Shown here in pieces: positions 1,713-52,210 of a stretch of DNA of 58,303 bases. The position numbers and the translations under genes are program-made. Positions within the stretch are counted from its first letter, which is position 1, and each line of letters begins with the position of its first letter. The notes under the pieces were generated by a model, which saw nothing but the letters and a program-made list of their open reading frames with translations, ran no database searches and had not been told where the DNA came from. Origin of the DNA: Candidatus Staskawiczbacteria bacterium RIFCSPHIGHO2_02_FULL_42_22 (GTDB taxonomy: Bacteria > Patescibacteriota > Minisyncoccia > Minisyncoccales > Staskawiczbacteraceae); NCBI GenBank assembly GCA_001820175.1, contig MHOT01000018.1:15401-73703 (forward strand), read 5' to 3'.

Positions 1713-4700
1713 TTGTGTGGTACAATAAACAGAATTACTACTCGTAACGTTATTTTTTTAATGAAACGTAAACCAGTAACTCATTCCTTTGCTATACCTA
1801 TTAAACAGGCGAAAAAAGAGGCGCCGGTTTTTGTGAACGTGAGGATCATTGATAAGGATCGGTGGTTTTCCATCCGATCTTTTTTACGTTTCTTTGCCCG
1901 GGCAAAAAATTGGTATTGCAAACGGTTTGTTGGCTCTTTGTTGCCGTCATTGCGCGCGGCGGCGGCCGCCGCGCGGGTTGGACTTACTGTTTACAATCGT
2001 TTAAACGAGATTGCCACGGCGGCGCGCCCGCGGGCGCGCCGCCTCGCAATGACGTGTGGCAAAACGTTGCATTTGATGTACTTACACGCGTTAAAAAGAA
2101 TTTTCCCTTCCCGCCGCCTCTCCCTGCGCCAGTGGGTTGCCCTGGTACTCTTATTTGTTTCCTGCGCGACGGTTTCCGGTAATTTGCTTTTTTCGCGTGT
2201 CCAACGCTACGTGCTCGAAGGTAAAATAATTAAACAGGTGGCAACGGTGCAAACCGCTCCGGTGGTGGCCCATTTGCCCGTGCCATACACAACGCTGGTC
2301 AACCGCACCGCCATTACCAAAGACCGGTATTTAGTGGCCCTTCCCAAAGGGGCGACTAACATTACCGTCAAGCGAATTAGCCAGAAGGAAGCTCAAAAAA
2401 TTACCTCTTCAAATAATGAATTTTTAAGTGGCCAGCTAACTCTTTTAGAACGTCAGCAATTGGCGAGCGCCAACAGAAAAATTACCAGCGGTTCCCCCCT
2501 TAGCTTTATTAACTTCGGTCTTTTCGTTTCCGACGGATTAAGCGCCATGGTTGGCAGGTTTGCCAATATTTTTGCCAAAAAATTAATTGCCGCGGAAGCC
2601 AGCGCCAGCGAGGAAGCAGTTGTCCAAGAGCCGGCGCCCGAGGCGCCGGCTCCAGAAAGCGTAGCCCCCGAGCCGTCTGTCCCGGAATCTTCAGCCCCTG
2701 AACCAGTCGCACCCGAGGCGCCGCTCGTCGAAGTTCCCGTTCTGGACGAGGTCGGACCTCGTACAGCTTCCGAACTTCCCGATCCCATTGAATCGGAAAC
2801 AATTCCCGAAGTCCCGGAAAGCGAAACAATCCCCGCTGAATCCGCATCCGCCGACACCTCCACCAGCGACGATCCAACCGAATCCATCACCCCAGAAATA
2901 ATCGAAACTCCGGATGCTATTCTGGTTGATCTTTCAGAAGAAGGCCTTGATGAAAATATGCCTGACGAAACCGAAGCGCCAGCCACGGAAAACCGTGGAG
3001 GCCCGACGTCCACGGTTTCACAAGAACCTGTGTCATTTGCGCCATCAGGCGACCCCGTCTTTGAAAGTGCCGGACAGGTGCTGGGCGAATCAATTTCAAG
3101 TGCCGAGGCAATCCAAACCGTCTCTTCTTCTGACCAGCCGGTGGTTTCAAGTAATGAGATTGTCCCGATGCCAGAGCCATCAGGGATCCTCGATGAAGTC
3201 GGGACTTCGCCTTCGCCTCTGGACTCGGCTCGCAATGACGAGAGTGAGATTGCTTCGGATGCGCCTCGCAATGACGAAAGCAACGAAAGCGCGCCTGATC
3301 AAAACACAACAGACGATTCGTTATTGCCAGAAGCAGCGCAGAGTGACGAAGAGGAATTTATCCAAATTGATTACGAACTTCCCGCGCCGCAAATTACCGA
3401 GCAAGATACCGCCACTGGAAAGGAAGTAACGGTGTTTGCCGAAAACGAAGATCCAAAAAATCCTCTCACCAATGTATTGGCTTTCACTACCATACCGGAA
3501 ATTTTCAACGTGGGGCAGGAAAGTAAAATCCAAATAAAATGGGTTAATAATGACGGCCAAATAATGCCCTTTACCGCTCACGATACCGACCAAAATGGAA
3601 AACTGGATTACCTGGAATGGACTGTGCCGCATTTGTCCGAGCAAACTTTTAATATTATTTTCATTTCCAAGGCCTTCCAACTGGACCAGGATAAAAATAT
3701 TATTGCCGATATTTATGACCAGGTTTCGTTTCAAGACAATAACTATGCAACTATTGAAAACAATCAATACGTCCGAGTCACTTTTGAAATTCCCTTTACC
3801 AGCCAGAATAATATTAAATTATACGCAAAATCGGATACCATCGGCGCCATCGAAGTATATCCGGTGTACACTGATGCCGAAGGTAATCTGACCGAGGGGG
3901 ATATTATTGCCACTTCAGGCAATATTACCAATGAAGGATTTCATGAAATTTTGCTCACGAATTTGCAAACGCCAACGGAGGTTTTTGATTTGAAAATTAC
4001 GGGCGTCGCGCCGCCTGCGGGCGGCGCAGAGAGCGGCGCGACCCAAGCAATCTCCATCGACTACATCGTCTATGCCGATTTTGATTATAGTCCTAACAAA
4101 ATTCTCACCCCCACGGGCTATAAAAATATTTCAGAACTTAACATTGGTGACGAAATCATCGGTTACGAAAACGGCCAGCAAGTGGTCAATCAGGTGGAAA
4201 ACATAGAACAACGCAGACCAGAGGACTACCATTATTGGGAAAAAGATGAACAAGGAAATGAAACTAATTATACAGAAGTCCCTTTTACGTACTATTTAAT
4301 TAACGAGACATGGGAACTGTTTAAGGATCAATCCATTTTTACCAAAGATCGTTTGGTTCACGCTTCGGAACTAAATGTCGGTGACATCATCTACGATGCC
4401 AATCACCAGCCAATAAAAATTACCAGCATCCGTAATGGAGAAGATCACATCCAGTGGACTCGCTTTACGGTTTCGGGTAACCATACCTATATTGCCGATG
4501 GACTGTTAATGCACAACGCCAGCCGGTATTGGGTTGCATTGATAGATCCGTCAAACGTAAGTGAGGGTGGTTGGGGTAGCGATGCTCCGACGGGCGGCAG
4601 TTGCATGAGCCTTGTAGCCAGTGTTCCCGGCTCAAGCGATGTTGCTATATTTGATGCCGATTGTGATACATCCGCTAACATTGATGCCAACTGGAGTTTG

Positions 4701-7700
4701 GCCGGTTTTAGTATGGAAAGCGGGTACACCGGCACCGTCACCCAAAACACTACCATTACTTTGACGGTTGGCTCCAGTAATTATTCTCAATTGGGAGGAA
4801 CGTTTACCGTGGGTGATGCCGCCATTGACATTAACGGAAGTTTCACCCTTTCCAACGCCGGCACCGCTTTCACCAGCACCAGCGCCACCATGACTATTTC
4901 GGGAAGTTTAACCACTTCCAGCTCGCCGACGTTTACCCACAATTCGGGGACGGTGACCTTTGATGGAACTTCAACATCAAGCACTAGCGTTGATGCCTCT
5001 AGTGTTACGTTTAATGCAGTCACTATTAACAGGACAATTTCTACTGGTAGTTTTGCTCCGACTTTTACTGTAACCAGTAATACTACAATTCCCTTGGGCA
5101 ATTCTCCCACGCTTACATTAAATAATAGTGATACTGTTAATGGTGCCTACTATTTGACTAACAATGGTACTATTACCGTAGGAACCGGGACTTTTACCTC
5201 AACTGTAGATGGAGGTATTACTAATTCTGGGGGATCGACCATCTCCGGAAGCGTTACTTCTTGGACTCAGAACGGAAACATCACTAATAATGGAACCATT
5301 ACTCTGAGTAGTTTAGCTACCCTAGATGTTAATTCACAAACAAATGCCGCTGGAATTGCCTCAATTGGCTCGTTTACTAACGGTGCTAGTGATACCCTAA
5401 CTACTGCTTCTAGTCCCACTCTTACTATCAATGGGAGTTTAACCGTTGATAGCACCTCTACCTTTCCTACCAATGCCACCGTCACCTTTGATGGAGCCAT
5501 CGGTGCAAGTAGTACTGTCGATGCCTCAGGAGTTACCTTTACCTCGGTAACCATTAATCGTACTATCGCTACTGGCAGTTTGGCTCCCACTTTTACTGTA
5601 GCCAATGGTACTACCCTTCCCCTCGGTAACTCTCCAACTCTTACATTAAATAATACCGACACGGTAAATGGTCAGTATTACTTAACTAACAATGGTACCA
5701 TCACCGTAGGAACTGGAACTTTCACTTCAAATGTGGACGGGGGTATTACCAACTCTGTCACAACAGGAGTCATTTCAGGAAGCGTTACCGCCTGGACCCA
5801 AAATGGAAATATGACCAACAACGGCACGATTACCATGAGTAGCTTAGCCACGCTTGATGTTAATTCGGCTACCGGAACTGGTATCATTGGGTCGTTTACC
5901 AGTGGCTCCGCCTCGACATTAACCACCGCTGCCAGCCCCACAATGACTTTTAATGGGAGTTTGACGGTTACTTCTGGGGCCACCTTTCCCACCAATCCCA
6001 CCGTAACCTTTGACGGAGCCATTACTGCAAGTAGTACTGTTAATGCCTCAGGAGTTACCTTTGCCTCGGTAACTATTAACCGTAGCATTAGCAATGGTTC
6101 AGTTACCCCAACTTTCACGGTTACCTCTGGTACTACTTTGCCGTTAGGCAATTCTCCCACGCTTACATTGAATAACGCCGATACCGTAAATGGTCAGTAT
6201 TACTTAACTAACAATGGTACCATCACCGTAGGAACTGGAACTTTCACTTCAAATGTGGACGGGGGTATTACCAACTCTGTCACAACAGGAGTCATTTCAG
6301 GAAGCGTTACCGCCTGGACCCAAAATGGAAATATGACCAACAACGGCACGATTACCATGAGTAGCTTAGCCACGCTTGATGTTAATTCGGCTACCGGAAC
6401 TGGTATCATAGGATCCTTTACTGCCGGCGCAAGTTCTACCCTTACTACCGCCGCTACTCCTACGATGACTTTTAATGGGAGTTTAACGGTTACTTCTGGG
6501 GCTGTGTTTCCGGCCAGTTCAGCGGTTACTTTTGATGGCAGTACCACCAGTGGCACTTTAACTTGTGGAGGTGTGACGCTTGGCAGTTTTACGGTCAATA
6601 AAACCAGTTCGGGAACCGTTACGGTCGGTGATGATTGTACTATTTCCGGAGCCCTTACCCGAACCGATGGAGCCATTAACAATCCCGCCGCTGCCAAGGT
6701 TTGGACGGTGCAGGGAGCATTCAGCATGTCCACTACCGACACCTTTGGAGGCGCCAATCTTACCTTAACCATGGGCGGAAGCAGTGCCCAGACTATTACC
6801 CAAAACGCCGGCACGATGTCAGGCGTATTTAAAGTAGACAAAACCGGCAGCAACGCCGCCTCGCTTTCCACGAATTTTACCACCGGCACCACTTGCAATG
6901 TGGTGGAAGGGGCATTTGCTATTACCAATAAAACATTTACCTGTGGTTCGACTTTTACCGTGGAAGATGGTGGTACTTTTCAGCGCGCTGGTAGCGAAAC
7001 TACAACGGCGCCAACTCTAAACTCTGGTTCAACGGTTACCTACGTTGGGGATGGCGACGCCGCCACTGACACCATTACCATTACCGGCTCAAATACTGAT
7101 TATCATCATCTTATCCTTAACGCCACCGACGGCGCTTCAGATACTTTCCAGCTTGGAGCCGGCATTACCGTTGCCGGTAATTTTACCAATACGGCAGGTA
7201 CCTTTAATGCTAACACGCAAACGGTCACGTTGGACGGCACTGACCAGACCCTTGCAGGCAGTACTACCTTTGCCGCTTTAGTAAAACAGGAAACCACTAA
7301 CGATGCTACCAACAAAACGTTAACTTTTACTTCGGGAACTACAACGACCATTAGCAGCACCCTCATCTTAGATGGATTAGATGCCGACGATAACCTCATC
7401 ATCGCCGCTTCCGCCGCTAGTGCCGCCACCATTGACTTTACCGGATCCTCAACGTTTTCAACCACCGGCTACCTGACGGTTTCCTACAACACCGCCACCG
7501 ATAATTCAAGCGGGGTTTCGCTTCCCTTAAGCCCCGCCAATTCCACCGATTCGGGCAATACCACTGGCTGGTTTGCTCCCACGTATTCCATCGGCGGCAC
7601 CGTCTACACTGACGAAGGTGTTACCAATATAGGATCTTTAAAAACTGTGGCGATCTCTATCAACGGTGCGGCCGCAGCCGGCACCGACGACACCGATGCC

Positions 7701-10700
7701 AGCGGAGTATACTCCATCACCGGTCTTACCATCTCTGCCAACGACGTGCTCACTCTATATATAGACGGCGAAACCGAAAAGGGAGTAACGGTAACATTGG
7801 CCTCCGGGAGCGATCAAACCAGTGTTCATATTTTCCAAAACTATTTAATCACCCGTTGTGATAATGCCTGTTCGCTCACCAATACTAATTTAGACACTGG
7901 CGATAATAATGCTGATACCGATATTTCGGCAATTTATTCTGTTGTAAGTGACGATGACGGCGATCCCCTCACCATCGCCGCCGGCAAATCATTATACATT
8001 CCTGTTAGCCACACCTTCGCCCCGGGAGGTACGGTATCAGTTGGCGGCAACTTCTCCAACAACGGCACTTTCACCCACGGTTCTTCTACGGTAACTCTAA
8101 CCTCCACCTCCGCCAGCGCCACCTTAAAAACCAATGCTTCATCGTTGTATAATCTGACCCAAGACGGTTCTGAAGGCACTTACACCCTGCAGGATGCTTT
8201 AACGGTATCAAATAATCTAACCATTACCGCAGGAACTTTGGATACCAAGTCGGGCTCTAATTATGGCATTACCATCGGTAATAATTTTTTCAACGGCGGC
8301 ACCTTTACCGCTCAATCCGGCACCGTTACTTTCAATGCCACCGCCACTGGAAAAACCATCACTGATGCGGGAGGGGGGGCGCCCTTCTATAATTTAACTT
8401 TCAATGGCGTGGGAGGAGGGTGGACACTAGGAAATAATACAACAGTTAGCAATGTTTTAACCATTACGAATGGTACGTTAGCGCTAGGATTTAATATTAC
8501 CCTCACCTTATCCGGCACCACAGGTGCTCCCTTTTCGAATTCAGGCACCTTCACCGCGGGTACCAGTAGTGTCACTTATACTGGCAACAATACCGGAGGC
8601 AATACAACGATTGCCAATGTGACCTACAGCACCCTTCGGGTAAATAACGGAAGCGAAACCTACGTACTGGCCGGCGACACCACCGTCAATGCCAACCTTA
8701 CCATTTCGGCGGGAACGCTGGACGCGGTTGCCGGAAGTAATTACTCGTTGACCGTCGGCAATAACTATTCCAATGCAGGCACCTTTGCCGCACAGGAGGG
8801 TACCGTCACTTTCACCGCCACTGCTACAGGAAAAACCATTACTACTGGTGGTTCATCTTTTTACAATCTCACTTTCAATGGAGTAGGCGGCGGCTGGACT
8901 TTGCAAGATGCCGCCACGGTTTCAAATGTATTAACCATCACTAACGGAACCCTGGATGGGGGATCAGTTAATCTTACCCTTTCCGGGACCACCGGCACTC
9001 CCTTTACCAGTGCAGGTACCTTTACTGCCAACACCGGCACCGTTTTTTATACGGGCAACAACGCCGGCGGCAACACCACCATCGCCAATGTTACCTACTA
9101 CAATTTAGGTCCTGATAATGCCAGTGAAACGTTTGTTTTGGCGGGTAATACAACCGTTAACAATATTTTCGTGATGACTGCAAGCACCACTCTTGACGTC
9201 GTCAGCGGCCAGAATTATTCACTAAGTGTTGGTGGTAACTGGAATAACGCTGGTATTTTCACCGCCCGAAGCGGCACTGTCACTTTAACCTCCACCTCCG
9301 CCGGCGCCACACTCACTTCAGGCGGCTCCAGTTTTTACAACCTCACTCAAAACGGCTCGGGAGGAACGTATACGTTACAAGATGCCCTCGCCACCACCAA
9401 TAATTTGACCATCACCGCCGGAACTTTGGACACCAAGTCCGGCTCCGATTTTGGAGTAAGTATCGGTAATAATTATTCCAACTCCGGCACATTCACTCCT
9501 CGCTCCGGCACCGTCACCCTCACCGCCACCGCCACCGGCAAAACCATCACCTCGGGAACCGGGGGTTTCTACAACCTCACCTTCAATGGTTCCGGCGGCG
9601 GCTGGACTTTGCAAGATGCGACAACCGTCAGCAACGTATTAACGATTACCGCCGGCACCCTGGACGCCGGCTCTCAGACCCTCACGCTTTCCGGCACCAC
9701 CGGAACCCCCTTTAGCATTGCAGGCACTTTTACCGAATCCACCTCAACCGTAAGTTTTACCGGCAACAATGCTGGTGGTAATACCACCATTCCCGCCGAC
9801 ACCTACTATAACCTAACCGTCAATAATGCTTCGGAGGCCTATACTCTGGCAGGAGACATTACCGTCAGCCGCGTACTTACGGTCACCGCCGGCACCCTTG
9901 TTAGTACTTCGAAAACCATCACGCTTTCCGGCACCACCGGCACGCCATTTTCTGTTTCAGGCAGCTACAGCGTAACCACGGGAACCGTCACCTACACCGG
10001 CAACAATTCCATCGGCAACACCATCGTCGCCAATGTTATCTACAATAACTTGACGCTCAATAATGCATCGGAGACATTTGACTTGGCCGGAAATACCACT
10101 GTCGCCGCCAACCTCACCATCACCGCCGGAACCTTGGACGCGGTTTCGGGAAGCAACTATACATTAAATGTCGCCGGTAACTGGTCAAACTCCGGAACCT
10201 TTACCGCCCAAAATGGCACCGTCACCTTGGACGGCACCAATCAGTCAATCACCGGCACCACCACGTTTTACAATCTCTCCAAAACAGAAGGATTAAATGA
10301 CAGCACCGACGAAACCCTTACGTTCACGGCCTCCACCACCTATACCGTCAGCAACACATTAACCCTCGACGGCCGCGATGCCAACGACCGCATCAATATC
10401 GTTTCCAGTGCTGGGGGAACCAAGTTTACCCTAGACCTAACGGGCGCCGCCCAAACCGCCGACTTCCTCGATGTCATTGATTCCCAGACCTCAACCAACA
10501 ATAATACTTGCACCAGTTGTGTAAATTCGGGCAACACCGACAGCGCCGAGTCCGCCCCTCACTGGGTGTTTTCAGCGGGAACGGTCACCTGGACCGGCAC
10601 CACCTCAACGGTTTGGTCAACCGGTACCAATTGGGATTCGGGCTCAGCACCCAACGACACCGATAACGTGGTGATTGCCGATGTTACCAATGACCCCATT

Positions 10701-13700
10701 TTAGATGGCAACAAAACGGTTAATGATTTGACGATTAATACTGGGGGTGTGCTGGATGCCAATACCACCAGCAATTACGGTCTGACGCTGACGGGCAATT
10801 GGAGTAATGCTGGCACTTTTACCGCGCGGGCAGGGACGGTTAATTTAACTTCTACTTCTTCAAGCGCCACCCTCACCAGCGGAAGTTCTTCTTTCTACAA
10901 CCTCACCCAAAATGGTTCGGGAGGTACCTACACCCTGCAGGATCACTTAACTACTGCTGCTACCCTCACCCTTACCCAGGGAATCTTTGCTGCTAATGAC
11001 AAAAATGTAACAGTGAACGTATTTAGTTCTTCTAACTCCAATACAAGAACTATCACCATGGGAACAGGAACCTGGACGTTAACTGGTAATAATACTACCA
11101 TCTGGAATACTTCAACTAATACCAACTTAACGCTTAATAGAGGCAATGCGATTGTTTCTAATTATAGTGGCTCTACGGGAACTAGAACTATAACAGGGTC
11201 TTCCATAGATGAAGCCACGAGTGCTGATTTTAATATTACCGCAGGATCAGATTCGGTCTTTATTACCGATGGAACTTCCGTACGCAATTTAGATTTCACG
11301 GGGTTTACTGGAACACTGTCTTCAAGTGACTGGCATATCTACGGTAATTTGGTTCTAGCTTCGGGCATGACGATAACGGGAGCAGGCAACAATATTACAT
11401 TTCGTGCAACTTCAGGTCCAAAAACGATTACCAGTAACGGAAAAACCCTTGGATATTCCCTTATCTTTAATGGCACTGGAGGCAGTTGGCAGCTTGTCGA
11501 TGACCTTAGTCTTGATTCCGGCAGTACTTTAACGATTACCCGAGGCACCTTTGACGCTAATAACCAGAACCTAACGACAGGACGACTCTCTTCTTCAAAC
11601 TCGAATACCCGTACTATCACCATGGGAAGCGGCACATGGACGTTAGCTGGCACCACTGGCACGCCTTGGGATACTTCTACTAGTACCAATCTGACACTCA
11701 ATGTTAATACCTCTACGGTGGCCTACGCGGGTAATAATGCGGGTGGCAATACCACCGTCGCCAATGTCACCTACAATAACCTGACGCTCAACAATTCTTC
11801 TGAAACGTTTGACTTGGGCGGAAACACTACCGTCAATAATAATGTCACTATCACCGCGGGAACGCTGGATGCCGTATCTGGCTCAAACTACACCATGAGC
11901 GTCGGAGGCAACTTTGCCAACTCCGGAACCTTCACCGCCCGCAGCGGCACCGTCACCCTCACTTCAACCTCCGCCAGCGCCACACTCACTTCCGGCGGCT
12001 CCAGTTTTTACAATCTCACCCAAAACGGCTCGGGCGGCACCTACACGTTGCAGGATGCGTTAACCGCTTCAAATAATCTAACCATTACCGCCGGAACTCT
12101 GGACACCAAGTCCGGCTCCGATTTTGGAGTAAGTATCGGTAATAATTATTCCAACTCCGGCACCTTTACCGCCCGATCCGGCACCGTCACCCTCACTTCA
12201 ACCTCCGCCAGCGCCACACTCACTTCCGGCGGCTCCAGTTTTTACAATCTCACCCAAAACGGCTCGGGAGGAACTTATACATTGCAAGATGCCCTCGCCA
12301 CCACCAATAATTTAACCATCACCGCCGGCACGCTCGACACCAAATCGGGCAGCAATTTTGCAATTTCCGTCGGCGGCAACTTTGCAAACTCGGGAACGTT
12401 TACCGCCCGCGAAGGCACCGTCACCCTCACCTCAACCTCCGCCAGCGCCACGCTCGACCCCGGAGGAACCACCTTTTACAACCTCACCCAAAACGGCTCA
12501 GGCGGCACCTACACCTTGCAGGGCGGCCTTGGTACGAGCAACAATCTAACCATCACTGCCGGCACCCTCGACACCAAGTCCGGTTCAAACTACGGTGTCT
12601 CGGTCGGAGGCACCTGGTCACGATCGGGAACGTTTACCGCGCGCTCCGCCAATTTCACCCTTACCGGAACTTCCACCTTTTCAGATACCATGTCGTTTTA
12701 CAATTTCATCATTAATGGTTCGGGCATCACCGCCACGCTGGGAGCCGACCTGACTGCCACGGGTACCTTAACCGTCACTCAGGGAACCTTAACTGCGGTT
12801 ACCTACAATGTAACTGCCGCCAATGTTGCCTCCGCCAACACCAACACCCGAACTATTTCCATGGGCACGGGCACTTGGACCTTATCGGGCACGGGAACCG
12901 TGTGGGATACTTCAACGACTACTAACCTTACCTTAAACGAAAGCACCTCCACTATTTCTTTGACTGACACTTCTTCTACTGTCAAAACCTTTGCCGGCGG
13001 CGGTGAGACATTTTACAATGTAAGTATTACTGCCTCCGGCACTGGGGCAATTATCGTAAGCGGAAGCAACACTTTCAACAACTTCACCATCAATCCGCCC
13101 AAGACCGTCACCTTTACTTCATCAACGACGCAAACCATCGGTGGGACGTTTTCCTGTACGGGAACTTCAGGTAACGTCATCACCATTAACGCTTCAACGG
13201 GCGGAACCGCCGCTACGCTTTCTAAGTCCTCGGGCACCGTATCTTGCGACTACCTACACTTAACTGATTCGGCCGCTACGGGGGGAGCTACTTGGGACCC
13301 GGGAGACAATTCCACCGACAACGGCGGCAACAGCGGCTGGGTGTTTAACACTGCCCCCTCTATTTCCGCCGGTCCTTCGGACCTTGGGGCCCTGTCGTCT
13401 CCCGCCAACGCCGGCTCGAACGTGACGTTCACCGCCACCGCCACCGATACCCAATCAGACAATTATTATTTAGCCGTTTGTAAAACCAATAGCATCACCG
13501 CTGCCAATAGCGCCGCCCCTACCTGCGGCGGAGGCAGTTGGGCCATTTCCAGCGCCACCGCTGCGGGGAGCCAGGCCTCGGTAACCTATGCCACGGTAGC
13601 AGGCGACAGCGAATCAAACGTTTGGTACGCATTTGTCTGTGATCAAAATAGCAACTCCTTCTGTTCTTCTTCCAGCCAGGGTTTGGGCAGCAACGGCTCG

Positions 13701-15590
13701 CCTTTTGAGGTCAACCACGTTCCTGCTTTCACGGCCGTCTCTAATACCTCCGGGGCCGTTACCACGGGTAACGCGGTTTCGTTTACTTCAACGGCCTCTG
13801 ATTCCGACACCGATTCCTCTGCCGATACCGTCACATTATATATCTGCAAATCCAACGATTTCGCTTCCGGCGTCTGCGGCTCGGCCGGCACCTGGTGCAG
13901 TTCATCAGCCAGTTCCTCTGATCCCTCGTGCAATTACACCATTGTCCAAGACGACGGCGACAGCGACCACTCCTACTATGCTTATATCGTTGATAACCAC
14001 AGTTTTGAATCAACTTCCAATCCCCGCACCGGCACCTTCACCTCTGATGTCATCGTTTCGTTTGGCGGAGGTGGTGGTGGTGGTGGAGGAGGAGGCGGAG
14101 GAGGTGGTGGTGGCGGCGGCGGCTCCGGCGGCGGTGGCTCAACCACGCCCCCCGAAGAATCCACCCCGGCCAGCCCCATCACCCCTATTATTGACATCAT
14201 CTCGGGGCCCATCAGCCAGGCCGGAGAAATCATCCAGGATATCGGCCAGGAAATCATCGATATTATTTTACCAAAGCCCAAACCATTGTCCCTTCCTCCC
14301 ATTCAAGAAGTGGTTGACACAAAACCACCGTTGGCGCTTACGGGCGATTGGGATCTGCTCTTTGGAGCCCAGATCAGAGAGTTCCTCTTCCATCCGTTGC
14401 CCTCTGACTTGAGCACTCTGGCCCAAAAGTTGCCCGAGGTAAAAAAGACCTTCACCGACACAGGGGTATCCACTCTGAATATGGTGGTGCAAAAATTACA
14501 GGGAGTGGAGTTGGCTATTCCGGGGATAAACCAGCGAATTGCGGCCCAAGAAATCGCTCTGCAAAAAATCGCCGATTCCCCAATATTGCCAGGAACCGAA
14601 CTGGCGGCTCCGGCATTGCCTGATAAAAAACTGCCAGCCGGCCAGCTTGGTCTAAACCAGCTTACCCTGCCCAAGAACATTCCTCTGGCCGAACTTCCGG
14701 CCATCGTTAAAACCTCCCTCCCTGGCGAGGTGGTCTTTGCCAGAACCCAAAATGAACTGATTGATTTTAATATCATTGTTTCCTTAAACGACCGCGGGCA
14801 GGCCGAGCAAAGGATTAACGCGGTTTCCGGCACCAATTTAAAGTTTGCCGTAAAGCCCTTAGCTCCGGTCGAAAGCGTTAAAGGGTACCTGGTGCTTTTG
14901 TCGGCTCAAACCAAAAAAACTGTATTTGAAGCACCGCTCAAGTTCCTGAAGGCCTCACTGGCCTTTGCTAATCCGCAGTTTGCCAAAAATCTCGAGGGCG
15001 AACCCGCCATTGAAAAAAAGTTCCTCTTAGCCGAATTTGACTATGCCGATCCCGATGAAGATGGCATCTGGACTGCCGAGGTTACGGCTCCCGCAGTTGA
15101 GGGAGAGTACGAGGTGATTACCATTATGAATTACAAGGACGTTACCATTGGTAACAGGGAAGTGCGGCTGATTGTGGTGGTAGATCCCGAGGGCTATGTG
15201 TATAGTAATATCATGGGCGGAGAATTACGAATTAACCAAGCCGAGGTTTCTTTGTATTGGCTCAACCCCGTGACAAAAAATTATGAGCTTTGGCCCGGTG
15301 ATGGCTTCCAGCAAAAAAACCCCCAGGTAACTGATAAAACCGGACGCTACGCCTTTTTGGTGCCGGAGGGAATGTACTACCTGACCGCCACCGCCCAAAA
15401 CTACCAGAAATTCCAATCAGAGGAATTTGGGGTCAGTGAAAACAACGGTGTCCACATTAACATTGAGATGGAAAGCAAGCTGTGGTGGTGGCTTAAATAT
15501 CTAGATTGGAAAACCTTGGCCGTGGTGGGGATGTTTGTATTATTGTCTTATATTATTATTAGTGGTAAAATGAGGAAAAGAAATCGGTAA
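1713..15590 (+). CDS. Giant (~4,600 aa) surface/adhesin-like protein: N-terminal TM, Pro/Glu-rich linker, Hint domain, ~3,000 aa of Thr/Ser/Gly/Asn-rich beta-helix-like repeats, Cys-containing Ig-like domains, poly-Gly linker, carboxypeptidase-regulatory-like domain, C-terminal TM
   Basis: Uninterrupted ORF; hydrophobic segment WVALVLLFVSCATVSG; repeat TFTARSGTVTLTSTSASATLTSGGSSFYNLTQNGSGGTYTLQD; C-terminal hydrophobic helix followed by KMRKRNR. True start uncertain (GTG 1713, ATG 1761 or ATG 2076). Confidence 0.9.
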   Translation: MCGTINRITTRNVIFLMKRKPVTHSFAIPIKQAKKEAPVFVNVRIIDKDRWFSIRSFLRFFARAKNWYCKRFVGSLLPSLRAAAAAARVGLTVYNRLNEIATAARPRARRLAMTCGKTLHLMYLHALKRIFPSRRLSLRQWVALVLLFVSCATVSGNLLFSRVQRYVLEGKIIKQVATVQTAPVVAHLPVPYTTLVNRTAITKDRYLVALPKGATNITVKRISQKEAQKITSSNNEFLSGQLTLLERQQLASANRKITSGSPLSFINFGLFVSDGLSAMVGRFANIFAKKLIAAEASASEEAVVQEPAPEAPAPESVAPEPSVPESSAPEPVAPEAPLVEVPVLDEVGPRTASELPDPIESETIPEVPESETIPAESASADTSTSDDPTESITPEIIETPDAILVDLSEEGLDENMPDETEAPATENRGGPTSTVSQEPVSFAPSGDPVFESAGQVLGESISSAEAIQTVSSSDQPVVSSNEIVPMPEPSGILDEVGTSPSPLDSARNDESEIASDAPRNDESNESAPDQNTTDDSLLPEAAQSDEEEFIQIDYELPAPQITEQDTATGKEVTVFAENEDPKNPLTNVLAFTTIPEIFNVGQESKIQIKWVNNDGQIMPFTAHDTDQNGKLDYLEWTVPHLSEQTFNIIFISKAFQLDQDKNIIADIYDQVSFQDNNYATIENNQYVRVTFEIPFTSQNNIKLYAKSDTIGAIEVYPVYTDAEGNLTEGDIIATSGNITNEGFHEILLTNLQTPTEVFDLKITGVAPPAGGAESGATQAISIDYIVYADFDYSPNKILTPTGYKNISELNIGDEIIGYENGQQVVNQVENIEQRRPEDYHYWEKDEQGNETNYTEVPFTYYLINETWELFKDQSIFTKDRLVHASELNVGDIIYDANHQPIKITSIRNGEDHIQWTRFTVSGNHTYIADGLLMHNASRYWVALIDPSNVSEGGWGSDAPTGGSCMSLVASVPGSSDVAIFDADCDTSANIDANWSLAGFSMESGYTGTVTQNTTITLTVGSSNYSQLGGTFTVGDAAIDINGSFTLSNAGTAFTSTSATMTISGSLTTSSSPTFTHNSGTVTFDGTSTSSTSVDASSVTFNAVTINRTISTGSFAPTFTVTSNTTIPLGNSPTLTLNNSDTVNGAYYLTNNGTITVGTGTFTSTVDGGITNSGGSTISGSVTSWTQNGNITNNGTITLSSLATLDVNSQTNAAGIASIGSFTNGASDTLTTASSPTLTINGSLTVDSTSTFPTNATVTFDGAIGASSTVDASGVTFTSVTINRTIATGSLAPTFTVANGTTLPLGNSPTLTLNNTDTVNGQYYLTNNGTITVGTGTFTSNVDGGITNSVTTGVISGSVTAWTQNGNMTNNGTITMSSLATLDVNSATGTGIIGSFTSGSASTLTTAASPTMTFNGSLTVTSGATFPTNPTVTFDGAITASSTVNASGVTFASVTINRSISNGSVTPTFTVTSGTTLPLGNSPTLTLNNADTVNGQYYLTNNGTITVGTGTFTSNVDGGITNSVTTGVISGSVTAWTQNGNMTNNGTITMSSLATLDVNSATGTGIIGSFTAGASSTLTTAATPTMTFNGSLTVTSGAVFPASSAVTFDGSTTSGTLTCGGVTLGSFTVNKTSSGTVTVGDDCTISGALTRTDGAINNPAAAKVWTVQGAFSMSTTDTFGGANLTLTMGGSSAQTITQNAGTMSGVFKVDKTGSNAASLSTNFTTGTTCNVVEGAFAITNKTFTCGSTFTVEDGGTFQRAGSETTTAPTLNSGSTVTYVGDGDAATDTITITGSNTDYHHLILNATDGASDTFQLGAGITVAGNFTNTAGTFNANTQTVTLDGTDQTLAGSTTFAALVKQETTNDATNKTLTFTSGTTTTISSTLILDGLDADDNLIIAASAASAATIDFTGSSTFSTTGYLTVSYNTATDNSSGVSLPLSPANSTDSGNTTGWFAPTYSIGGTVYTDEGVTNIGSLKTVAISINGAAAAGTDDTDASGVYSITGLTISANDVLTLYIDGETEKGVTVTLASGSDQTSVHIFQNYLITRCDNACSLTNTNLDTGDNNADTDISAIYSVVSDDDGDPLTIAAGKSLYIPVSHTFAPGGTVSVGGNFSNNGTFTHGSSTVTLTSTSASATLKTNASSLYNLTQDGSEGTYTLQDALTVSNNLTITAGTLDTKSGSNYGITIGNNFFNGGTFTAQSGTVTFNATATGKTITDAGGGAPFYNLTFNGVGGGWTLGNNTTVSNVLTITNGTLALGFNITLTLSGTTGAPFSNSGTFTAGTSSVTYTGNNTGGNTTIANVTYSTLRVNNGSETYVLAGDTTVNANLTISAGTLDAVAGSNYSLTVGNNYSNAGTFAAQEGTVTFTATATGKTITTGGSSFYNLTFNGVGGGWTLQDAATVSNVLTITNGTLDGGSVNLTLSGTTGTPFTSAGTFTANTGTVFYTGNNAGGNTTIANVTYYNLGPDNASETFVLAGNTTVNNIFVMTASTTLDVVSGQNYSLSVGGNWNNAGIFTARSGTVTLTSTSAGATLTSGGSSFYNLTQNGSGGTYTLQDALATTNNLTITAGTLDTKSGSDFGVSIGNNYSNSGTFTPRSGTVTLTATATGKTITSGTGGFYNLTFNGSGGGWTLQDATTVSNVLTITAGTLDAGSQTLTLSGTTGTPFSIAGTFTESTSTVSFTGNNAGGNTTIPADTYYNLTVNNASEAYTLAGDITVSRVLTVTAGTLVSTSKTITLSGTTGTPFSVSGSYSVTTGTVTYTGNNSIGNTIVANVIYNNLTLNNASETFDLAGNTTVAANLTITAGTLDAVSGSNYTLNVAGNWSNSGTFTAQNGTVTLDGTNQSITGTTTFYNLSKTEGLNDSTDETLTFTASTTYTVSNTLTLDGRDANDRINIVSSAGGTKFTLDLTGAAQTADFLDVIDSQTSTNNNTCTSCVNSGNTDSAESAPHWVFSAGTVTWTGTTSTVWSTGTNWDSGSAPNDTDNVVIADVTNDPILDGNKTVNDLTINTGGVLDANTTSNYGLTLTGNWSNAGTFTARAGTVNLTSTSSSATLTSGSSSFYNLTQNGSGGTYTLQDHLTTAATLTLTQGIFAANDKNVTVNVFSSSNSNTRTITMGTGTWTLTGNNTTIWNTSTNTNLTLNRGNAIVSNYSGSTGTRTITGSSIDEATSADFNITAGSDSVFITDGTSVRNLDFTGFTGTLSSSDWHIYGNLVLASGMTITGAGNNITFRATSGPKTITSNGKTLGYSLIFNGTGGSWQLVDDLSLDSGSTLTITRGTFDANNQNLTTGRLSSSNSNTRTITMGSGTWTLAGTTGTPWDTSTSTNLTLNVNTSTVAYAGNNAGGNTTVANVTYNNLTLNNSSETFDLGGNTTVNNNVTITAGTLDAVSGSNYTMSVGGNFANSGTFTARSGTVTLTSTSASATLTSGGSSFYNLTQNGSGGTYTLQDALTASNNLTITAGTLDTKSGSDFGVSIGNNYSNSGTFTARSGTVTLTSTSASATLTSGGSSFYNLTQNGSGGTYTLQDALATTNNLTITAGTLDTKSGSNFAISVGGNFANSGTFTAREGTVTLTSTSASATLDPGGTTFYNLTQNGSGGTYTLQGGLGTSNNLTITAGTLDTKSGSNYGVSVGGTWSRSGTFTARSANFTLTGTSTFSDTMSFYNFIINGSGITATLGADLTATGTLTVTQGTLTAVTYNVTAANVASANTNTRTISMGTGTWTLSGTGTVWDTSTTTNLTLNESTSTISLTDTSSTVKTFAGGGETFYNVSITASGTGAIIVSGSNTFNNFTINPPKTVTFTSSTTQTIGGTFSCTGTSGNVITINASTGGTAATLSKSSGTVSCDYLHLTDSAATGGATWDPGDNSTDNGGNSGWVFNTAPSISAGPSDLGALSSPANAGSNVTFTATATDTQSDNYYLAVCKTNSITAANSAAPTCGGGSWAISSATAAGSQASVTYATVAGDSESNVWYAFVCDQNSNSFCSSSSQGLGSNGSPFEVNHVPAFTAVSNTSGAVTTGNAVSFTSTASDSDTDSSADTVTLYICKSNDFASGVCGSAGTWCSSSASSSDPSCNYTIVQDDGDSDHSYYAYIVDNHSFESTSNPRTGTFTSDVIVSFGGGGGGGGGGGGGGGGGGGGSGGGGSTTPPEESTPASPITPIIDIISGPISQAGEIIQDIGQEIIDIILPKPKPLSLPPIQEVVDTKPPLALTGDWDLLFGAQIREFLFHPLPSDLSTLAQKLPEVKKTFTDTGVSTLNMVVQKLQGVELAIPGINQRIAAQEIALQKIADSPILPGTELAAPALPDKKLPAGQLGLNQLTLPKNIPLAELPAIVKTSLPGEVVFARTQNELIDFNIIVSLNDRGQAEQRINAVSGTNLKFAVKPLAPVESVKGYLVLLSAQTKKTVFEAPLKFLKASLAFANPQFAKNLEGEPAIEKKFLLAEFDYADPDEDGIWTAEVTAPAVEGEYEVITIMNYKDVTIGNREVRLIVVVDPEGYVYSNIMGGELRINQAEVSLYWLNPVTKNYELWPGDGFQQKNPQVTDKTGRYAFLVPEGMYYLTATAQNYQKFQSEEFGVSENNGVHINIEMESKLWWWLKYLDWKTLAVVGMFVLLSYIIISGKMRKRNR
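1945..2054. repeat. Family D palindrome in the 5' end of the giant ORF
   Basis: CGTCATTGCG...CGCAATGACG termini with GC-rich internal hairpins. Confidence 0.85.
4077..4517 (+). other. Hint (intein-like/BIL) domain within the giant protein, aa ~789-935
   Basis: KILTPTGYKNISELNIGDEI (block A-like), ASELNVGDII, FTVSGNHTYIADGLLMHN (blocks F/G with terminal His-Asn). Confidence 0.88.
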
Positions 15591-15983: not shown

Positions 15984-16008
15984 TTTTTTTATTTTTCTAT
16001 TTACGTAA

Positions 16009-16285
16009 TAGACCTGTTGCGTATTAAGGATTTACTGCAAATTGCATATTTCGGCCACAAATTTGCTATACCTAGTATAATGTGTCGCTCGTTCGGAAAG
16101 GAATAATTGCGATTTTTCCTTTCCTCTCTCGCTTAGCACATTATAATTTTTCGGTCAAGATGTGGGTAAATTTGTAGCAACAAATTTCCCCATCTCCGGG
16201 CCTGGAGGCAAGCCGAAAAATTCTATCAAATTTCTGCCACAAAATCTTCAATTTTCGTAACAATCCTTAATACGCAACAGGTCTA
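16009..16285. mobile_element. Family A MITE-like palindromic element (277 bp; TIR TAGACCTGTTGCGTATTAAGGA)
   Basis: 22-bp perfect TIRs, no ORF, near-identical copies elsewhere in either orientation. Confidence 0.9.
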
Positions 16286-16348
16286 ATCTTTAAAATTAGA
16301 AGGCCTCGGCCTTCTTTTTTTTGCCTAATTTCGCCCGAGAAATTATTC

Positions 16349-16390
16349 ATTTTCCACAAATTTCCACGATCGTGGAAATTTGTGGAAAAT
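16349..16390. repeat. 42-bp perfect palindrome upstream of the PaaX-like gene
   Basis: ATTTTCCACAAATTTCCACGATCGTGGAAATTTGTGGAAAAT, ending 18 bp before the ATG. Confidence 0.95.
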
Positions 16391-16407
16391 AATGGTACAA
16401 TTTAAAT

Positions 16408-16998
16408 ATGAAAAAAACAAAACTCAGAAAAAAAATAAAAAGAGTCAAGAATACGAACAAAGAAACTCTGTCTAAAAAAATCTTATTATATCTTGGGGAA
16501 AAATCAAAAGAAATGTTAGATTTAAGCGTAAGGATTATGTTTGATTTTAAGAGTATTCGGTCGGAATTTGGAGTAAATTTGTATGGAAACTCTTATTATT
16601 TGCCTCGGGAATTTTATCGCTTAAAAAAGAGTCCTTATTTCTCTTATAGTCCTACCGAAGAAAAATTCTACCTTACAGAAAAGGGGCGCATTAAGATCAT
16701 AGAAAGTGTTCTAAGAAATAAAAAAATGAATCAAAAAAGGTGGGATGGTTTCTGGCGGGCGATTATTTTTGATATTCCCGAGGCAAGCCGAAACGACAGA
16801 GACTTTTTAAGAAAAGAATTGCGTTGGATTGGCTGCAAAGAAATACAAAAGAGCGTCTGGGTAACGCCTTTTGATTTTGAAAAGGAACTTATGGCAATTC
16901 TCACGTTATGGAAGCGGGATTTTAGAGGGAATATCCAATTTTTAAAAATAGAAAAAATATCTGGCGAAGAAGAAATAAAACAGTATTTTAACATATAG
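16408..16998 (+). CDS. PaaX-like / Cas2-like-fold putative regulator
   Basis: FYLTEKGR wing motif, then WDGFWRAIIFDIPEASRNDRDFLRKELRWIGCKEIQKSVWVTP, typical of PaaX C-terminal/Cas2-like CPR proteins. Confidence 0.8.
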   Translation: MKKTKLRKKIKRVKNTNKETLSKKILLYLGEKSKEMLDLSVRIMFDFKSIRSEFGVNLYGNSYYLPREFYRLKKSPYFSYSPTEEKFYLTEKGRIKIIESVLRNKKMNQKRWDGFWRAIIFDIPEASRNDRDFLRKELRWIGCKEIQKSVWVTPFDFEKELMAILTLWKRDFRGNIQFLKIEKISGEEEIKQYFNI

Positions 16999-17036
16999 CC
17001 ATAACTTCATTAATCTCGATTATTTTATTTAAATTT

Positions 17037-17078
17037 ATTTTCCACAAATTTCCACGATCGTGGAAATTTGTGGAAAAT
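17037..17078. repeat. 42-bp perfect palindrome downstream of the PaaX-like gene
   Basis: Identical to 16349-16390. Confidence 0.95.
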
Positions 17079-17242
17079 GGAAATTTCAGCGGCATTTCTT
17101 TTATCGCCCTCCGCATCTTTCTTTAGTGGATAGCCGTGGGTAGCATGGATAGATAGAAACGTATGCTAGAACGTATGATTGAAATAATACCTAAAAAAAT
17201 GTACAATCAAGTGCAACCATAAAACATGCGCAACTATAAAAT

Positions 17243-20122
17243 ATGAAACTCGATGTTATTAAAATTCGCGGGGCCAGGGTGCATAACTTAAAAAATATTG
17301 ACCTGGACATCCCCAAAAATAAATTGGTGGTGATTACCGGGCTTTCGGGCAGCGGTAAATCATCATTAGCATTTGATACGTTGTATGCCGAAGGCCAGAG
17401 GCGCTATGTGGAAAGTTTATCGGCTTATGCCCGGCAATTTTTGGGGGTTATGGATAAGCCCGACGTTGATAAAATAGAAGGCATCAGTCCGGCTATTTCT
17501 ATTGACCAGCGCAAGTCAGTGCACAATCCCCGTAGTACCGTGGGGACTACCACGGAAATTTATGACTACCTGCGGCTTTTGTTTGCGCGTATCGGCAAGC
17601 CCCATTGCCCGAATTGCGGCAAACTAATTTCAAAGCAAACCGTGGATCAAATTGTTGACCAGGTATTAACCATTAAAGAAGGCGCGGAAATTTCAATACT
17701 GGGCCCCGTTATACGAGGAAAAAAGGGTGAACACACCGCAGTTTTGCAAGAAATTCAGCGGGCGGGTTTTGTGCGGGTAAGAATTGATAAAGATATGTAT
17801 CTAATAGAAGAAGCACTGCAAAAGCTACTAGATAAGCAAAAAAAACATGACATTGAAGCCGTTGTTGATCGGTTGGTATTGGTAAATGACTTGGATAGGT
17901 CTCGGTTAGTGGATTCCCTGGAAACCGCTTTAAAGTTAGGAAAAGGCATTGTCATACTTAATACCCAATACAAACCACCTAATACTAAAATTAAATCAGA
18001 AGATTTAATTTTTAGCGAACACTTCGCCTGTGAGGATTGCGGCATTTCCCTGGCCGAACTTGAACCCCGCATGTTTTCGTTTAATAATCCGTATGGCGCT
18101 TGCCCCGAATGCACGGGTCTTGGAGAAAAATTGGAGGTTTCGGCTGACTTGGTTATGCCCAATAAAAATTTGACGCTGGCTGAAGGCGCTATTTTTGCCT
18201 GGTCGAATGCCAGCCATAAAGTGGGTCGGCAGGGGTATTATCATTGGAATCTTTCGGAATTGGCACGTGCATACCACTTTTCTTTAGATGTGCCGGTCAA
18301 GAATTTACCCCCAAAAATTATTGATATTATCTTGCATGGAGATAATGCGGGTTTTGAGGGAGTCATTGCAAACTTGGAAAGACGATACCATGAAACTGAT
18401 TCCGAATGGACGCGTCAGGAAATTGACCAGTATATGGTAATTAAACAGTGCCCCATGTGTCAGGGAAAACGATTAAAACCGGAAGTGCTGGCGATTACCG
18501 TAGCCAGTGTTTCTGTTGATGTTATTGTCAAGATGCCCGTCGATGATTTGCAGAAATTTTTTTCCGCCTTGCCGAAACAACTGAGTGCTAATGATGTAAA
18601 AATCAGCACGCCGATTACCAAAGAAATTAATGATCGGCTTCAATTTTTGGTTGATGTGGGACTCGGGTATTTGAATTTAGACAGAAAGGCGGTTACCTTA
18701 GCGGGGGGAGAAGAACAACGGATACGCCTGGCCACCCAAATTGGATCAAAATTATCCGGAGTGCTATATATTTTAGACGAACCGTCAATTGGATTGCACG
18801 CGCGCGACCAGCACCGGTTAATTCATACGTTATTGCAACTGCGCGATTTAGGAAACACGGTGATTGTGGTAGAACACGATCCACAGACCATGATGGCGTC
18901 GGATTGGATTGTGGATATTGGGCCCGGTGCCGGCAAGCACGGGGGACGAGTTATCTTCCAGGGAACACCAGGGGCACTCCTCAAATCTAATACATTGACC
19001 GGACAATATCTATCAGGGAGGAAAACAGTTTCTGGAGAGGTATTAAGTAGTAAGTATAAAGTATTAAGCAAAGGCCAAAAAGTTGGTTTAAATACTAAAT
19101 ACCCAATACCAAATACCAAATACTTAACCGTCAAGGGTGCCAAAGAGCATAATTTAAAAAACATTGATGTGGCTTTTCCTTTGGGTAAATTTATTTGTGT
19201 GACCGGTGTTTCGGGCAGCGGCAAGTCGTCGCTTGTAAATGACATTCTGGCCCGCGCATTGCTAAAGCAATTTTACCGAGCAAAAGATGAACCTGGAATG
19301 CATACAAAAATTACCGGAACCGAACACATTAATAAGGTGGTCTTGGTTGACCAGTCGCCCATTGGTCGGACTCCGCGGTCAAACCCCGCAACTTATACTG
19401 GCGCATTTTCATTTATTCGTGATATTTTTACCCAAACGAAAGAATCGCGGATTCGCGGATATTTAGCGGGCCGTTTTAGTTTTAATGTAAAAGGCGGCCG
19501 GTGCGAGGCCTGTGAAGGACAGGGTACCAAAAAAGTAGAAATGTATTTTTTGCCGGATATTTATGTAGAATGCGAGGAGTGTCGCGGTAAGCGTTACAGC
19601 AAGGAGGTGCTGGAAATTACTTATAAAGATAAAAATATTGCCGACGTGCTCAAAATGACCATTGAAGAAGCCGGTGAGTTTTTCGAACATATCCCGGGGG
19701 TGTACGATAAAATGAAAACGTTAAAAGAGGTGGGGCTTTCTTACGTTGAACTCGGCCAGGCGGCCACTTCACTGTCGGGCGGAGAGGCCCAGCGGATAAA
19801 ACTGGCTACCGAACTTTCACGCCGCGACACCGGTAACACATTATATATTTTAGATGAACCAACCACCGGTTTGCACTTTGAAGATATTAAGAAACTGATT
19901 TCAGTATTAAGAAATTTGGTCGATAAAGGAAATACAGTATTAGTTATTGAACACAATATTTCGCTTATTGCTGTTTCGGATTGGATTATAGATTTAGGGC
20001 CAGAGGGAGGAGAAAAAGGTGGCGGGATTGTTGTCGAGGGAATTCCACAAGATATTGCAAAAAATAAAAAATCTTATACTGCCAAATTCTTAAGAGATGT
20101 TTTTTTTGGCAAGATTATATAA
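17243..20122 (+). CDS. uvrA: Excinuclease ABC subunit A
   Basis: [10 protein letters not shown], two Walker A motifs (GLSGSGKSS; GVSGSGKSS), zinc fingers, [12 protein letters not shown] and [12 protein letters not shown] signatures. Confidence 0.98.
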
Positions 20123-36484: not shown

Positions 36485-36679
36485 ATGGAACCGGAAACCC
36501 AAAAAATTATATCATTGCTTGAAGATCTAGTACAATCACAAAAGGCCAACCAGGCCGCTATGGTAGAAATGACTCGCAAGGATAAAAAATATAAAAAAGT
36601 TATCGGAGGATTGCTTATTGTTGTGTTAGTGTCTTTTTTGTATGCAATCGTGATATCATTGTTGTATTATTATAAATAG
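36485..36679 (+). CDS. Small C-terminally anchored hypothetical protein
   Basis: 64 aa with one TM; stop codon TAG coincides with the first bases of a family A element. Confidence 0.6.
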   Translation: MEPETQKIISLLEDLVQSQKANQAAMVEMTRKDKKYKKVIGGLLIVVLVSFLYAIVISLLYYYK

Positions 36680-36954
36680 ACCTGTTGCGTATTAAGGATT
36701 GTCGCGAAAATTACAGATTTTGAGCTGGAAATTTGATAGAATTTTTCGGCTTGCCCTCTGGGCCCGGAGATGGGGAAATTTGTTGCTACAAATTTACCCA
36801 CATCTTGACCGAAAAATTATAATTTGCTAAGCGAGAGAGAAAAAGAAGAATAGCAATTATTCTTTTTCGAACGAGCGACAAATTATACTAGGTATAGCAA
36901 ATTTCTGGCCAAAATATGCAATTTGCAGCAAATCCTTAATACGCAACAGGTCTA
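36677..36954. mobile_element. Family A element (278 bp), opposite orientation to the 16009 copy
   Basis: Same TIRs and internal modules. Confidence 0.9.
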
Positions 36955-36960
36955 ATAAAT

Positions 36961-40833: not shown

Positions 40834-40867
40834 TTTACCTTCACATCAAACAGGTGGGGTAATATAA

Positions 40868-41144: not shown

Positions 41145-41170
41145 ATAATACAAACAAGTAAAAGTTTAAA

Positions 41171-52187: not shown

Positions 52188-52210
52188 TATACCAAATAAA
52201 ATTTAAACAA

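Follow-up and report, generated by a model that had tools for sequence, protein, structure and literature searches.

PaaX is the phenylacetyl-CoA-responsive repressor of Escherichia coli and Pseudomonas (PDB entries 8a39 and 3l09). In a second described system, repetitive extragenic palindromic (REP) sequences and their RAYT genes (REPtrons, REPINs), a gene is flanked by cognate palindromic repeats, each paralog has a repeat class of its own, and solo copies of the repeats are dispersed in a lineage-specific manner. Here, we describe a locus for which the closest known protein is PaaX and the closest system logic is that of REP/RAYT; the defining features of both, the PaaX_C domain and the Y1 transposase, are missing. 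The locus lies in a 58,303-nt stretch of DNA from an ultra-small bacterium of the CPR/Patescibacteria, Candidatus Staskawiczbacteria bacterium RIFCSPHIGHO2_02_FULL_42_22 (contig MHOT01000018.1, positions 15,401 to 73,703, forward strand), hereafter called the window. It comprises a gene for a short PaaX-family protein with the same perfect palindrome on either side. From sequence comparisons, we judge the odds to be slightly better than even (a probability of roughly 0.55) that the protein is a palindrome-binding self-repressor, encoded in a self-bracketed cassette that is gained or lost, and that its palindromes are also copied as solo REP-like DNA. A literature search found no published description of such a system and, among the papers searched, none combining PaaX and Cas2, with or without a palindrome term.

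PaaX and the protein described here share an N-terminal winged helix and a Cas2-like middle domain. PaaX of E. coli recognises the operator TGATTC-N27-GAATCA and acts as a repressor at its own promoter (PMC9493321). The length of that operator, and the geometry of its distal half-sites, fit the 40-bp palindrome and the positions of its outer words. Conversely, PaaX has a PaaX_C domain; here there is no PaaX_C, there are no paa genes, and the model for full-length PaaX equivalogs (TIGR02277) scores 32.6 bits against a cut-off of 264.55. The site here also departs from the PaaX operator: its symmetry is unbroken at the centre, it flanks the gene on either side, and solo copies of it are scattered elsewhere. 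The Cas2-type aspartate, invariant in our family, is absent from the PaaX-like protein Rv0674.

The likeness to REP/RAYT covers the gene with its own flanking repeats, the class per paralog, the solo copies and their lineage specificity. However, the REP/RAYT partner is an HUH/Y1 (IS200/IS605-like) transposase, whereas the partner here is a PaaX_M/Cas2-like protein in a genome with no Y1 transposase. REP sequences occur in tens to hundreds of copies and are imperfect hairpins tagged with GTAG or CGTC. Here, there are 1–6 copies per class, and these are loop-less perfect palindromes with a CG-NN-CG centre, some of them within coding regions. Rickettsia palindromic elements, and selfish repeats of a similar in-frame kind, are also found as in-frame inserts in conserved genes, tolerated as extra surface loops; here, the affected genes are uvrC (twice), a holB-like gene and argS. 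Those elements are ~100–150 bp long, rather than 36–42 bp, and our palindromes have a candidate cognate gene and are mostly intergenic.

Cas2, in which an aspartate of the first β-strand is the catalytic residue, and VapD have the ferredoxin-like fold seen here. The sequence FDIPE ... R ... LR ... QKSVW aligns with YDV ... R ... L ... QRSAF of the Cas2 protein 3exc. Cas2 is likewise tied to partly palindromic repeats that flank an insert. Unlike our protein, it acts in the context of cas1 and a CRISPR array, neither of which is present here, and it is not fused to a winged helix. The hallmarks of a transposon or a MITE (miniature inverted-repeat transposable element), namely terminal inverted repeats together with target-site duplications and multiple copies of the element, are not seen; there is one cassette per class.

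A PaaX-family gene and its flanking palindromes

The features of the cassette and its immediate surroundings are as follows.

16349–16390, no strand: upstream copy, a 42-bp perfect palindrome (40-bp core at 16350–16389), from exact-match and fold analysis.
16408–16998, forward strand: gene for the 196-aa short PaaX-family protein, with a winged helix at residues ~20–108, a Cas2-like PaaX_M domain at ~110–196, FDIPE at 121–125 and no PaaX_C.
17037–17078, no strand: downstream copy, a 42-bp palindrome, from exact match.
580–619, no strand: solo exact 40-bp copy, in frame in uvrC, with the UVR motif on one side and the RNase H-like domain on the other.
16373–16401, forward strand: predicted promoter, TGGAAA-N17-TACAAT with a TG extension, from a consensus scan only.
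16298–16315, forward strand: terminator-like GC hairpin and T-run directly upstream of the cassette, from a sequence scan.
17018–17165, no strand: 148-bp segment (20-bp inner flank, palindrome and 88-bp outer flank) that recurs at C10:9173–9028 with 88% identity.

The 40-bp perfect palindrome TTTTCCACAAATTTCCACGATCGTGGAAATTTGTGGAAAA has exact copies at positions 580–619, 16350–16389 and 17038–17077 of the window, and had no match in 100 shuffled sequences. Both gene-adjacent copies extend to 42 bp by a flanking A...T (16349–16390 and 17037–17078); the uvrC copy is 40 bp. The upstream copy is separated from the ATG by 18 nt and the stop codon from the downstream copy by 39 nt. Each arm carries TTTCCAC twice, with 10-bp spacing. 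The coordinates and the doubled word were therefore as described in the initial annotation of this DNA. In the whole genome (821 kb in 30 contigs) the 40-mer has six copies. Four are exact, the fourth being on contig C29, one on C10 has a single mismatch, and one on C2 has two mirror-symmetric mismatches that leave it a perfect palindrome. With just six copies, the palindrome is neither high-copy nor randomly scattered; the initial annotation had named random scatter at high copy as a point against its reading. Searching the genus for the core with up to three mismatches recovered the six copies here and, in the other 25 genomes, a single 3-mismatch match (in G001). Within two mismatches, the core of this class (class A) was absent from those 25 genomes.

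As single-stranded DNA the upstream palindrome folds at −19.3 kcal/mol (z = −7.4). The 148-bp segment around the downstream copy lies ~80–90 bp upstream of a gene at both of its sites, which is uvrA here and a metallo-β-lactamase-fold hydrolase on C10. For the 88-nt flank common to both, the predicted fold was not significant. An Rfam search gave no family at threshold and only sub-threshold matches to generic (miRNA) hairpins, and a known RNA family for the palindrome or its flank was dropped as an explanation on these two grounds. We also set aside a reading of the repeated word as a DnaA box. The sequence TTTTCCACA does match the DnaA box in its relaxed form. However, dnaA itself is located on a different contig, boxes are hardly in excess (120 against 87 expected) and form no clusters, and the word is missing from the other palindrome classes. 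The C2 solo copy lies at the exact centre of a longer palindrome, GACACGGATAA ... TTATCCGCGTC, which makes a 62-bp nested palindrome at C2:9872–9933.

By homology and its modelled structure, the gene product is a short PaaX-family protein, consisting of a winged helix and a Cas2-like domain without the effector-binding PaaX_C. PaaX_M (PF20803) was the only Pfam domain matched (E = 1.8e-20; 73.2 bits with a cut-off of 24), at residues 110–167. No Pfam match to PaaX_C was obtained, and the chain stops at residue 196. Thus, the Cas2-like fold, which the initial annotation had assigned to the C-terminal region of PaaX, corresponds to the middle domain, PaaX_M, and it is the true PaaX_C that is missing. 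The N-terminus also had no Pfam match, and the winged helix is supported at fold level, by an AlphaFold2 model and Foldseek. In the model (pLDDT 78.9), helices at 21–32, 47–54 and 62–74 and a β-hairpin at 78–89 precede a β-α-β-β-α-β domain. The top Foldseek match was E. coli PaaX (8a39; 178 columns, E = 4e-3). Many Cas2 chains came next, including 5zyf, 8ia4 and 2ivy, with TM-scores on the target of ~0.6 and probabilities of ~1.0 for several chains.

A profile of 23 homologs weakly matched VapD (3ui3), the PaaX-like Rv0674 (3kfw) and the Cas2 protein SSO8090 (3exc). Residues Asp122, Arg131, Gln147 and Ser149 are invariant in all 23. In the alignment, Asp122 of FDIPE pairs with the β-1 aspartate of 3exc; Rv0674 has serine at this position. 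The protein had no Cas2 match in Pfam and weak Cas2 matches in PADLOC (E = 0.003). Profile searches of the whole genome found no Cas1 (PF01867), and there is no CRISPR context; the equivalent search for a Y1/RAYT transposase (PF01797) also gave no match. A defence-system or phage origin was considered and rejected, PADLOC having returned only the weak Cas2 matches and PHROGs nothing.

The predicted −35 element of the gene is within the right arm of the upstream palindrome. Because of this overlap, the protein most likely represses itself. The −10 element ends 7 nt before the ATG; hence, the predicted mRNA would be leaderless or nearly so. The hairpin at 16298–16315 would insulate the cassette from upstream transcription.

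Palindromes and proteins across the family

A pattern scan, using one genome per species, returned at least 578 homolog loci, nearly all labelled Patescibacteria. The flanks were surveyed for 70 distinct homologs, each with 230 bp or more of flanking DNA. A strong adjacent palindrome was found upstream of 43 and downstream of 44; 33 had one on both sides and 54 on at least one. Among control open reading frames (ORFs) of the same loci, 9 of 410 were bracketed by a common palindrome. The initial annotation had proposed testing whether each homolog is flanked by a lineage-specific palindrome of which solo copies exist as well, and had taken the lack of such flanking palindromes as an argument against a cassette. 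The outcome was positive, with 54 of 70 flanked and solo copies found. Three apparent exceptions (L001, which is the closest database homolog, G012 and a G006 paralog) have degenerate copies that keep the centre and the outer words.

At 69 loci we counted palindromes centred on CG-NN-CG whose arms were 10 bp or longer, allowing up to two mismatches. Their density was 1.41 per kb within 300 bp of the gene and 0.0147 per kb elsewhere, a ~96-fold difference. Clustering of solo copies near cassettes was looked for and discarded; the 3-kb flanks hold 0.0147 per kb, approximately the genome background, with no enrichment. Median distances across loci are 18 bp between palindrome edge and ATG, 6 bp between stop codon and palindrome edge, and 636 bp between the two centres.

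There are five paralogs in this genome. All are bracketed, each by its own palindrome class, and the centres are CGATCG, CGGCCG or GAAGCTTC. Within the genus, distribution is patchy, with 0–8 paralogs per genome. No clear relative orientation emerges for the pair of flanking copies (18 direct, 12 inverted and 3 ties). Where the centre is asymmetric (CGACCG/CGGTCG), upstream and downstream copies are opposite, in a flip/flop-like manner, at 3/3 informative loci (L001, L072 and L076).

Protein and palindrome co-vary. The correlation between protein distance and palindrome distance (Mantel r = 0.29) was reached in 0 of 500 permutations. Sister proteins have the same centres and arms, as for L010 and L011 (CGTACG), L008, L089 and L081 (GACGGCCGTC), and L020, L022 and L035 (TGCGATCGCA). 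We derived a half-site profile, numbered from the dyad, from 87 palindromes. C stands at position 3 in 83 of them and G at position 2 in 76. Positions 5–8 vary, positions 9–12 are more than 90% A/T and positions 13–20 vary again; the outer TTTCCAC of the present locus occupies positions 14–20, the region in which the E. coli PaaX operator has its half-sites. The central 4 nt are self-complementary in 75 of the 87 palindromes, with ~5 expected by chance. These nucleotides could not pair in a hairpin; hence, their symmetry suggests either that duplex DNA is read with two-fold symmetry or that some process produces perfect palindromes. Upstream and downstream members of a pair may differ at several positions and yet each stay perfect (L047, L034, L042 and L096).

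These patterns suggest how the protein may work. A dimer of the protein with two-fold symmetry would bind the cognate 40–42-bp palindrome in duplex form, the Cas2-fold domain pairing the two chains as in PaaX. The conserved part of the protein would sit over the conserved CG-NN-CG centre, and the variable winged helices would read the variable outer words (TTTCCAC here), 13–20 bp from the dyad. Binding at the upstream copy would cover the gene's own −35 element and shut the gene off, as PaaX does at its own promoter. Most likely, then, the protein is a sequence-specific duplex binder of its own palindrome, with self-repression the likeliest consequence.

Solo copies and the uvrC-uvrA locus

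The cassette stands between two repair genes, the first of which contains palindromes itself.

20–1477, reverse strand: uvrC (GIY-YIG, UVR and UvrC RNase H domains), host to two in-frame palindromes and the ancestrally divergent neighbour of uvrA.
17243–20122, forward strand: uvrA, directly downstream of the cassette, with a promoter-like TTGAAA-N17-TACAAT at 17179–17207.
220–255, no strand: second in-frame palindrome of uvrC, which belongs to a different class (CTCGTACAAATCCGACGGCCGTCTGATTTGTACGAG, CGGCCG centre) and is translated approximately as TRTNQTAVGFVRD.

Genes uvrC and uvrA form a divergent pair in 12 genomes of the genus. The cassette is found there only in the present genome (G000) and in G012. 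The two genes are 37–47 bp apart in G007 and G031 and as much as ~1 kb apart elsewhere; the spacers of 12 relatives contained no palindrome of this kind. The comparison indicates that the gene and its palindromes are a compact unit, gained or lost. The initial annotation had suggested empty sites that keep one palindrome; at this locus none was found, and for the spacers of the 12 relatives an empty site bearing a solo palindrome is ruled out. Strain polymorphism was considered and set aside; near-identical contig L168 has the same context with two single-nucleotide polymorphisms.

In the present genome the uvrC-uvrA pair is separated further: a gene of 13.9 kb, an ORF of 120 aa and a MITE-like repeat also lie between the two. 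The large gene is a repetitive ORF of 4625 aa (window 1713–15590) with many repeats of 78-residue period and a long poly-Gly run. The MITE-like repeat is ~280 nt long with ends TAGACCTGTTGCGTATTAAGGAT / ATCCTTAATACGCAACAGGTCTA. One copy (16006–16297) is directly upstream of the cassette and further copies are at 36658–36957, 40866–41147, 52199–52373, 54722–54980 and 55011–55194. Elsewhere in the window, long inverted repeats ~6.5 kb apart bracket a segment (46405–46457 and 53183–53235; 53 nt, 100% identity), accompanied by a second inverted pair (46472–46553 and 52965–53046; 82 nt, 96%).

The class-A copy in uvrC is translated in frame as FSTNFHDRGNLWK, an insert of 13–14 residues in a linker. 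The same linker has 0–9 residues in 11 homologous UvrC proteins, which identifies the uvrC copy as an insertion. A similar TAVDFG insert is present in UvrC of G002, at the same spot as the palindrome at 220–255, and UvrC of G012 has yet another palindrome (NFPLTNSYELVSGK) at a different position. A holB-like gene (DNA_pol3_delta2) and argS each contain an in-frame palindrome of class B' (CGATCG-centred), and the Pfam matches of both are ~13–20 residues longer than the profile spans. These copies, at C5:24400–24437 and C12:64406–64443, have TATACTC arms and a GCGATCGC centre. Of the remaining class-A solo copies, those on C2 and C10 are 165–178 bp upstream of ORFs and that on C29 abuts a stop codon between convergent ORFs. 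One orphan class (..TTTTGCAGAAAAATGGACGATCGTCC.., 46–60 bp) has four copies (C14:1796–1855, C19:14828–14885, C19:18979–19024 and C27:4903–4958) and no cognate PaaX-like gene in the assembly.

AT-rich palindromes with CG-NN-CG-type centres number 25 in the 821 kb of this genome and one in 660 kb of G007, which has no paralog; that one is a CCATGG-centred, terminator-like hairpin. GC-rich hairpins are present in G007 also, although it has no PaaX-like gene. The initial annotation had offered the protein as a candidate trans-acting factor for the palindromes of this genome. That proposal stands for the protein's own class but does not extend to all classes, given the GC-rich hairpins of a genome that lacks the gene. 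Comparison of these sequences shows that the palindrome also occurs as solo copies at other sites, behaving like a low-copy REP-like repeat with this protein as the partner gene. On the same basis, the alternatives framed in the initial annotation, a cassette with its own palindromes that serves either autoregulation or repeat propagation, appear well founded.

Competing explanations and implications

Perfect symmetry, solo copies and a patchy distribution would also be expected of an autonomous mini mobile element. Here, the winged-helix/Cas2-like protein would be an enzyme that recognises its palindromes, nicks or cuts the CG-NN-CG centre with Asp122 and so excises, inserts or copies DNA, in a REPtron-like manner. 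The tight bracket, with strong palindromes on both sides of 33 of 70 homologs, fits such an element, as do absence of the cassette from the same spacer in most of the genus and paralog numbers of 0–8. So do the solo copies that match at 40/40 positions, in-frame inserts included, the nesting of the C2 copy in a 62-bp palindrome and the unbroken central symmetry of the palindromes. No Y1/RAYT transposase is present in the genome that might explain the repeats, and the residues invariant in 23/23 homologs include an aspartate that aligns with that of Cas2 3exc and is not present in Rv0674 (3kfw). The same residues, acidic and basic, could however be structural or contact DNA. Strand transfer is not known for Cas2-fold proteins, and PaaX uses this domain for dimerisation. 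Moreover, each genome has one cassette per class with 1–4 solo copies, and neither target-site duplications nor excision junctions were seen. We regard a mobile element of this kind as possible but unlikely. It is doubtful that the protein catalyses palindrome copying by nicking or cutting with its Cas2-type Asp122, and equally doubtful that it is the active enzyme of an undescribed class of minimal mobile or repeat-generating elements in Patescibacteria, cutting at the CG-NN-CG dyad. Were it such an enzyme, the palindromes, which have perfect centres and keep their symmetry by mirrored changes, would be regenerated through a hairpin or fold-back intermediate, or by duplication of the full site on integration of the gene. 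Formally, the repeat-insert-repeat layout produced in this way would resemble what repeat duplication yields in CRISPR spacer integration.

An ordinary transcription factor regulon, in which the palindromes are operators, solo copies mark regulated genes (for example, a uvrA and uvrC repair regulon) and nothing moves, is suggested by PaaX itself, a repressor with a ~39-bp operator. The cassette adjoins uvrA here and is between uvrA and uvrC in G012, another paralog is between fpg and holA, and the C2 and C10 copies are 165–178 bp upstream of ORFs. Set against this are a solo copy within uvrC coding sequence and another, on C29, at a stop codon between convergent ORFs. The downstream palindrome is ~100 bp upstream of the promoter-like site of uvrA rather than over it, and so is not positioned as a classical uvrA operator. 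Among ~100 homolog loci only G000 and G012 have uvrA or uvrC near the homolog; thus, a repair regulon is not a family feature. The protein also has no ligand-sensing domain, and many members of the genus lack the gene but have retained uvrA and uvrC. A plain regulon hence seems improbable. More improbable again is an RNA-level system, in which a ribonuclease domain of VapD/Cas2 type would bind or cleave hairpins in the 5′ and 3′ untranslated regions and in uvrC mRNA. RNases are known in the Cas2/VapD fold family, VapD 3ui3 is weakly matched, the hairpin is stable and mirrored changes preserve its pairing. Yet the central 4 nt are self-complementary in 75/87 palindromes despite being unpairable in a hairpin, and no Rfam family reached threshold. 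In addition, a terminator upstream of the upstream palindrome and a predicted −10 element downstream of it would place that copy outside the gene's own transcript. Coincidence, in the form of generic terminators or genome-wide repeats that happen to be near the gene, has next to nothing to recommend it. Palindromes of various kinds are indeed abundant in the genome (124 have arms of 12 bp or more, compared to 0–4 in shuffled sequence). Nevertheless, the 96-fold enrichment beside the gene, the co-variation with the protein and the private classes of the paralogs all argue otherwise, and the palindromes are AT-rich with no T-tract, unlike the GC-rich terminator hairpins also found in G007.

Several observations weigh against the self-repressor cassette that we favour. 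Although the upstream site alone would suffice for a simple autorepressor, conservation is just as strong for the downstream copy, which lies close against the stop codon (median 6 bp). The promoter is a consensus match only, and a near-identical strain has GACAAT in place of TACAAT, a weaker −10 element. Copy number is low (1–6 per class) with a single cassette per class, no target-site duplications are evident around the six copies, and in G006, where the palindromes of the paralogs are degenerate, the 140 kb sampled contained no solo copy. Perfect symmetry spans 30–60 bp, which is beyond what a dimeric reader should constrain. Furthermore, 65 differences between upstream and downstream copies are mirrored, against a null of 20 ± 3, although this test is partly circular, as only well-preserved palindromes were compared. 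Free of that bias, the C2 solo copy has two changes that are mirrored and complementary (chance ~1 in 117). These observations point to a force beyond plain half-site reading that keeps the arms complementary, which could be cruciform or hairpin pairing or arm-to-arm templating.

With the self-repressor cassette as our preferred reading, the finding links a large uncharacterised family of Patescibacteria, with at least 578 loci in species-level genomes, to a specific DNA partner. As every protein has its own site beside it, hundreds of naturally occurring pairs are available for working out a recognition code. For the palindromic repeats strewn through these very small genomes, some of them within essential genes, the protein is a candidate factor acting in trans. 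If it proves to be a self-bracketed autorepressor only, the twin-site layout of the cassette and its rapid turnover would still be undescribed. If the Cas2-like domain is catalytic, this would be a new repeat-handling system and a possible evolutionary link between Cas2 and palindromic repeats. Such an enzyme would give the Cas2 fold a sequence-specific role at repeats outside CRISPR, and would bear on how Cas2 was recruited to CRISPR repeats.

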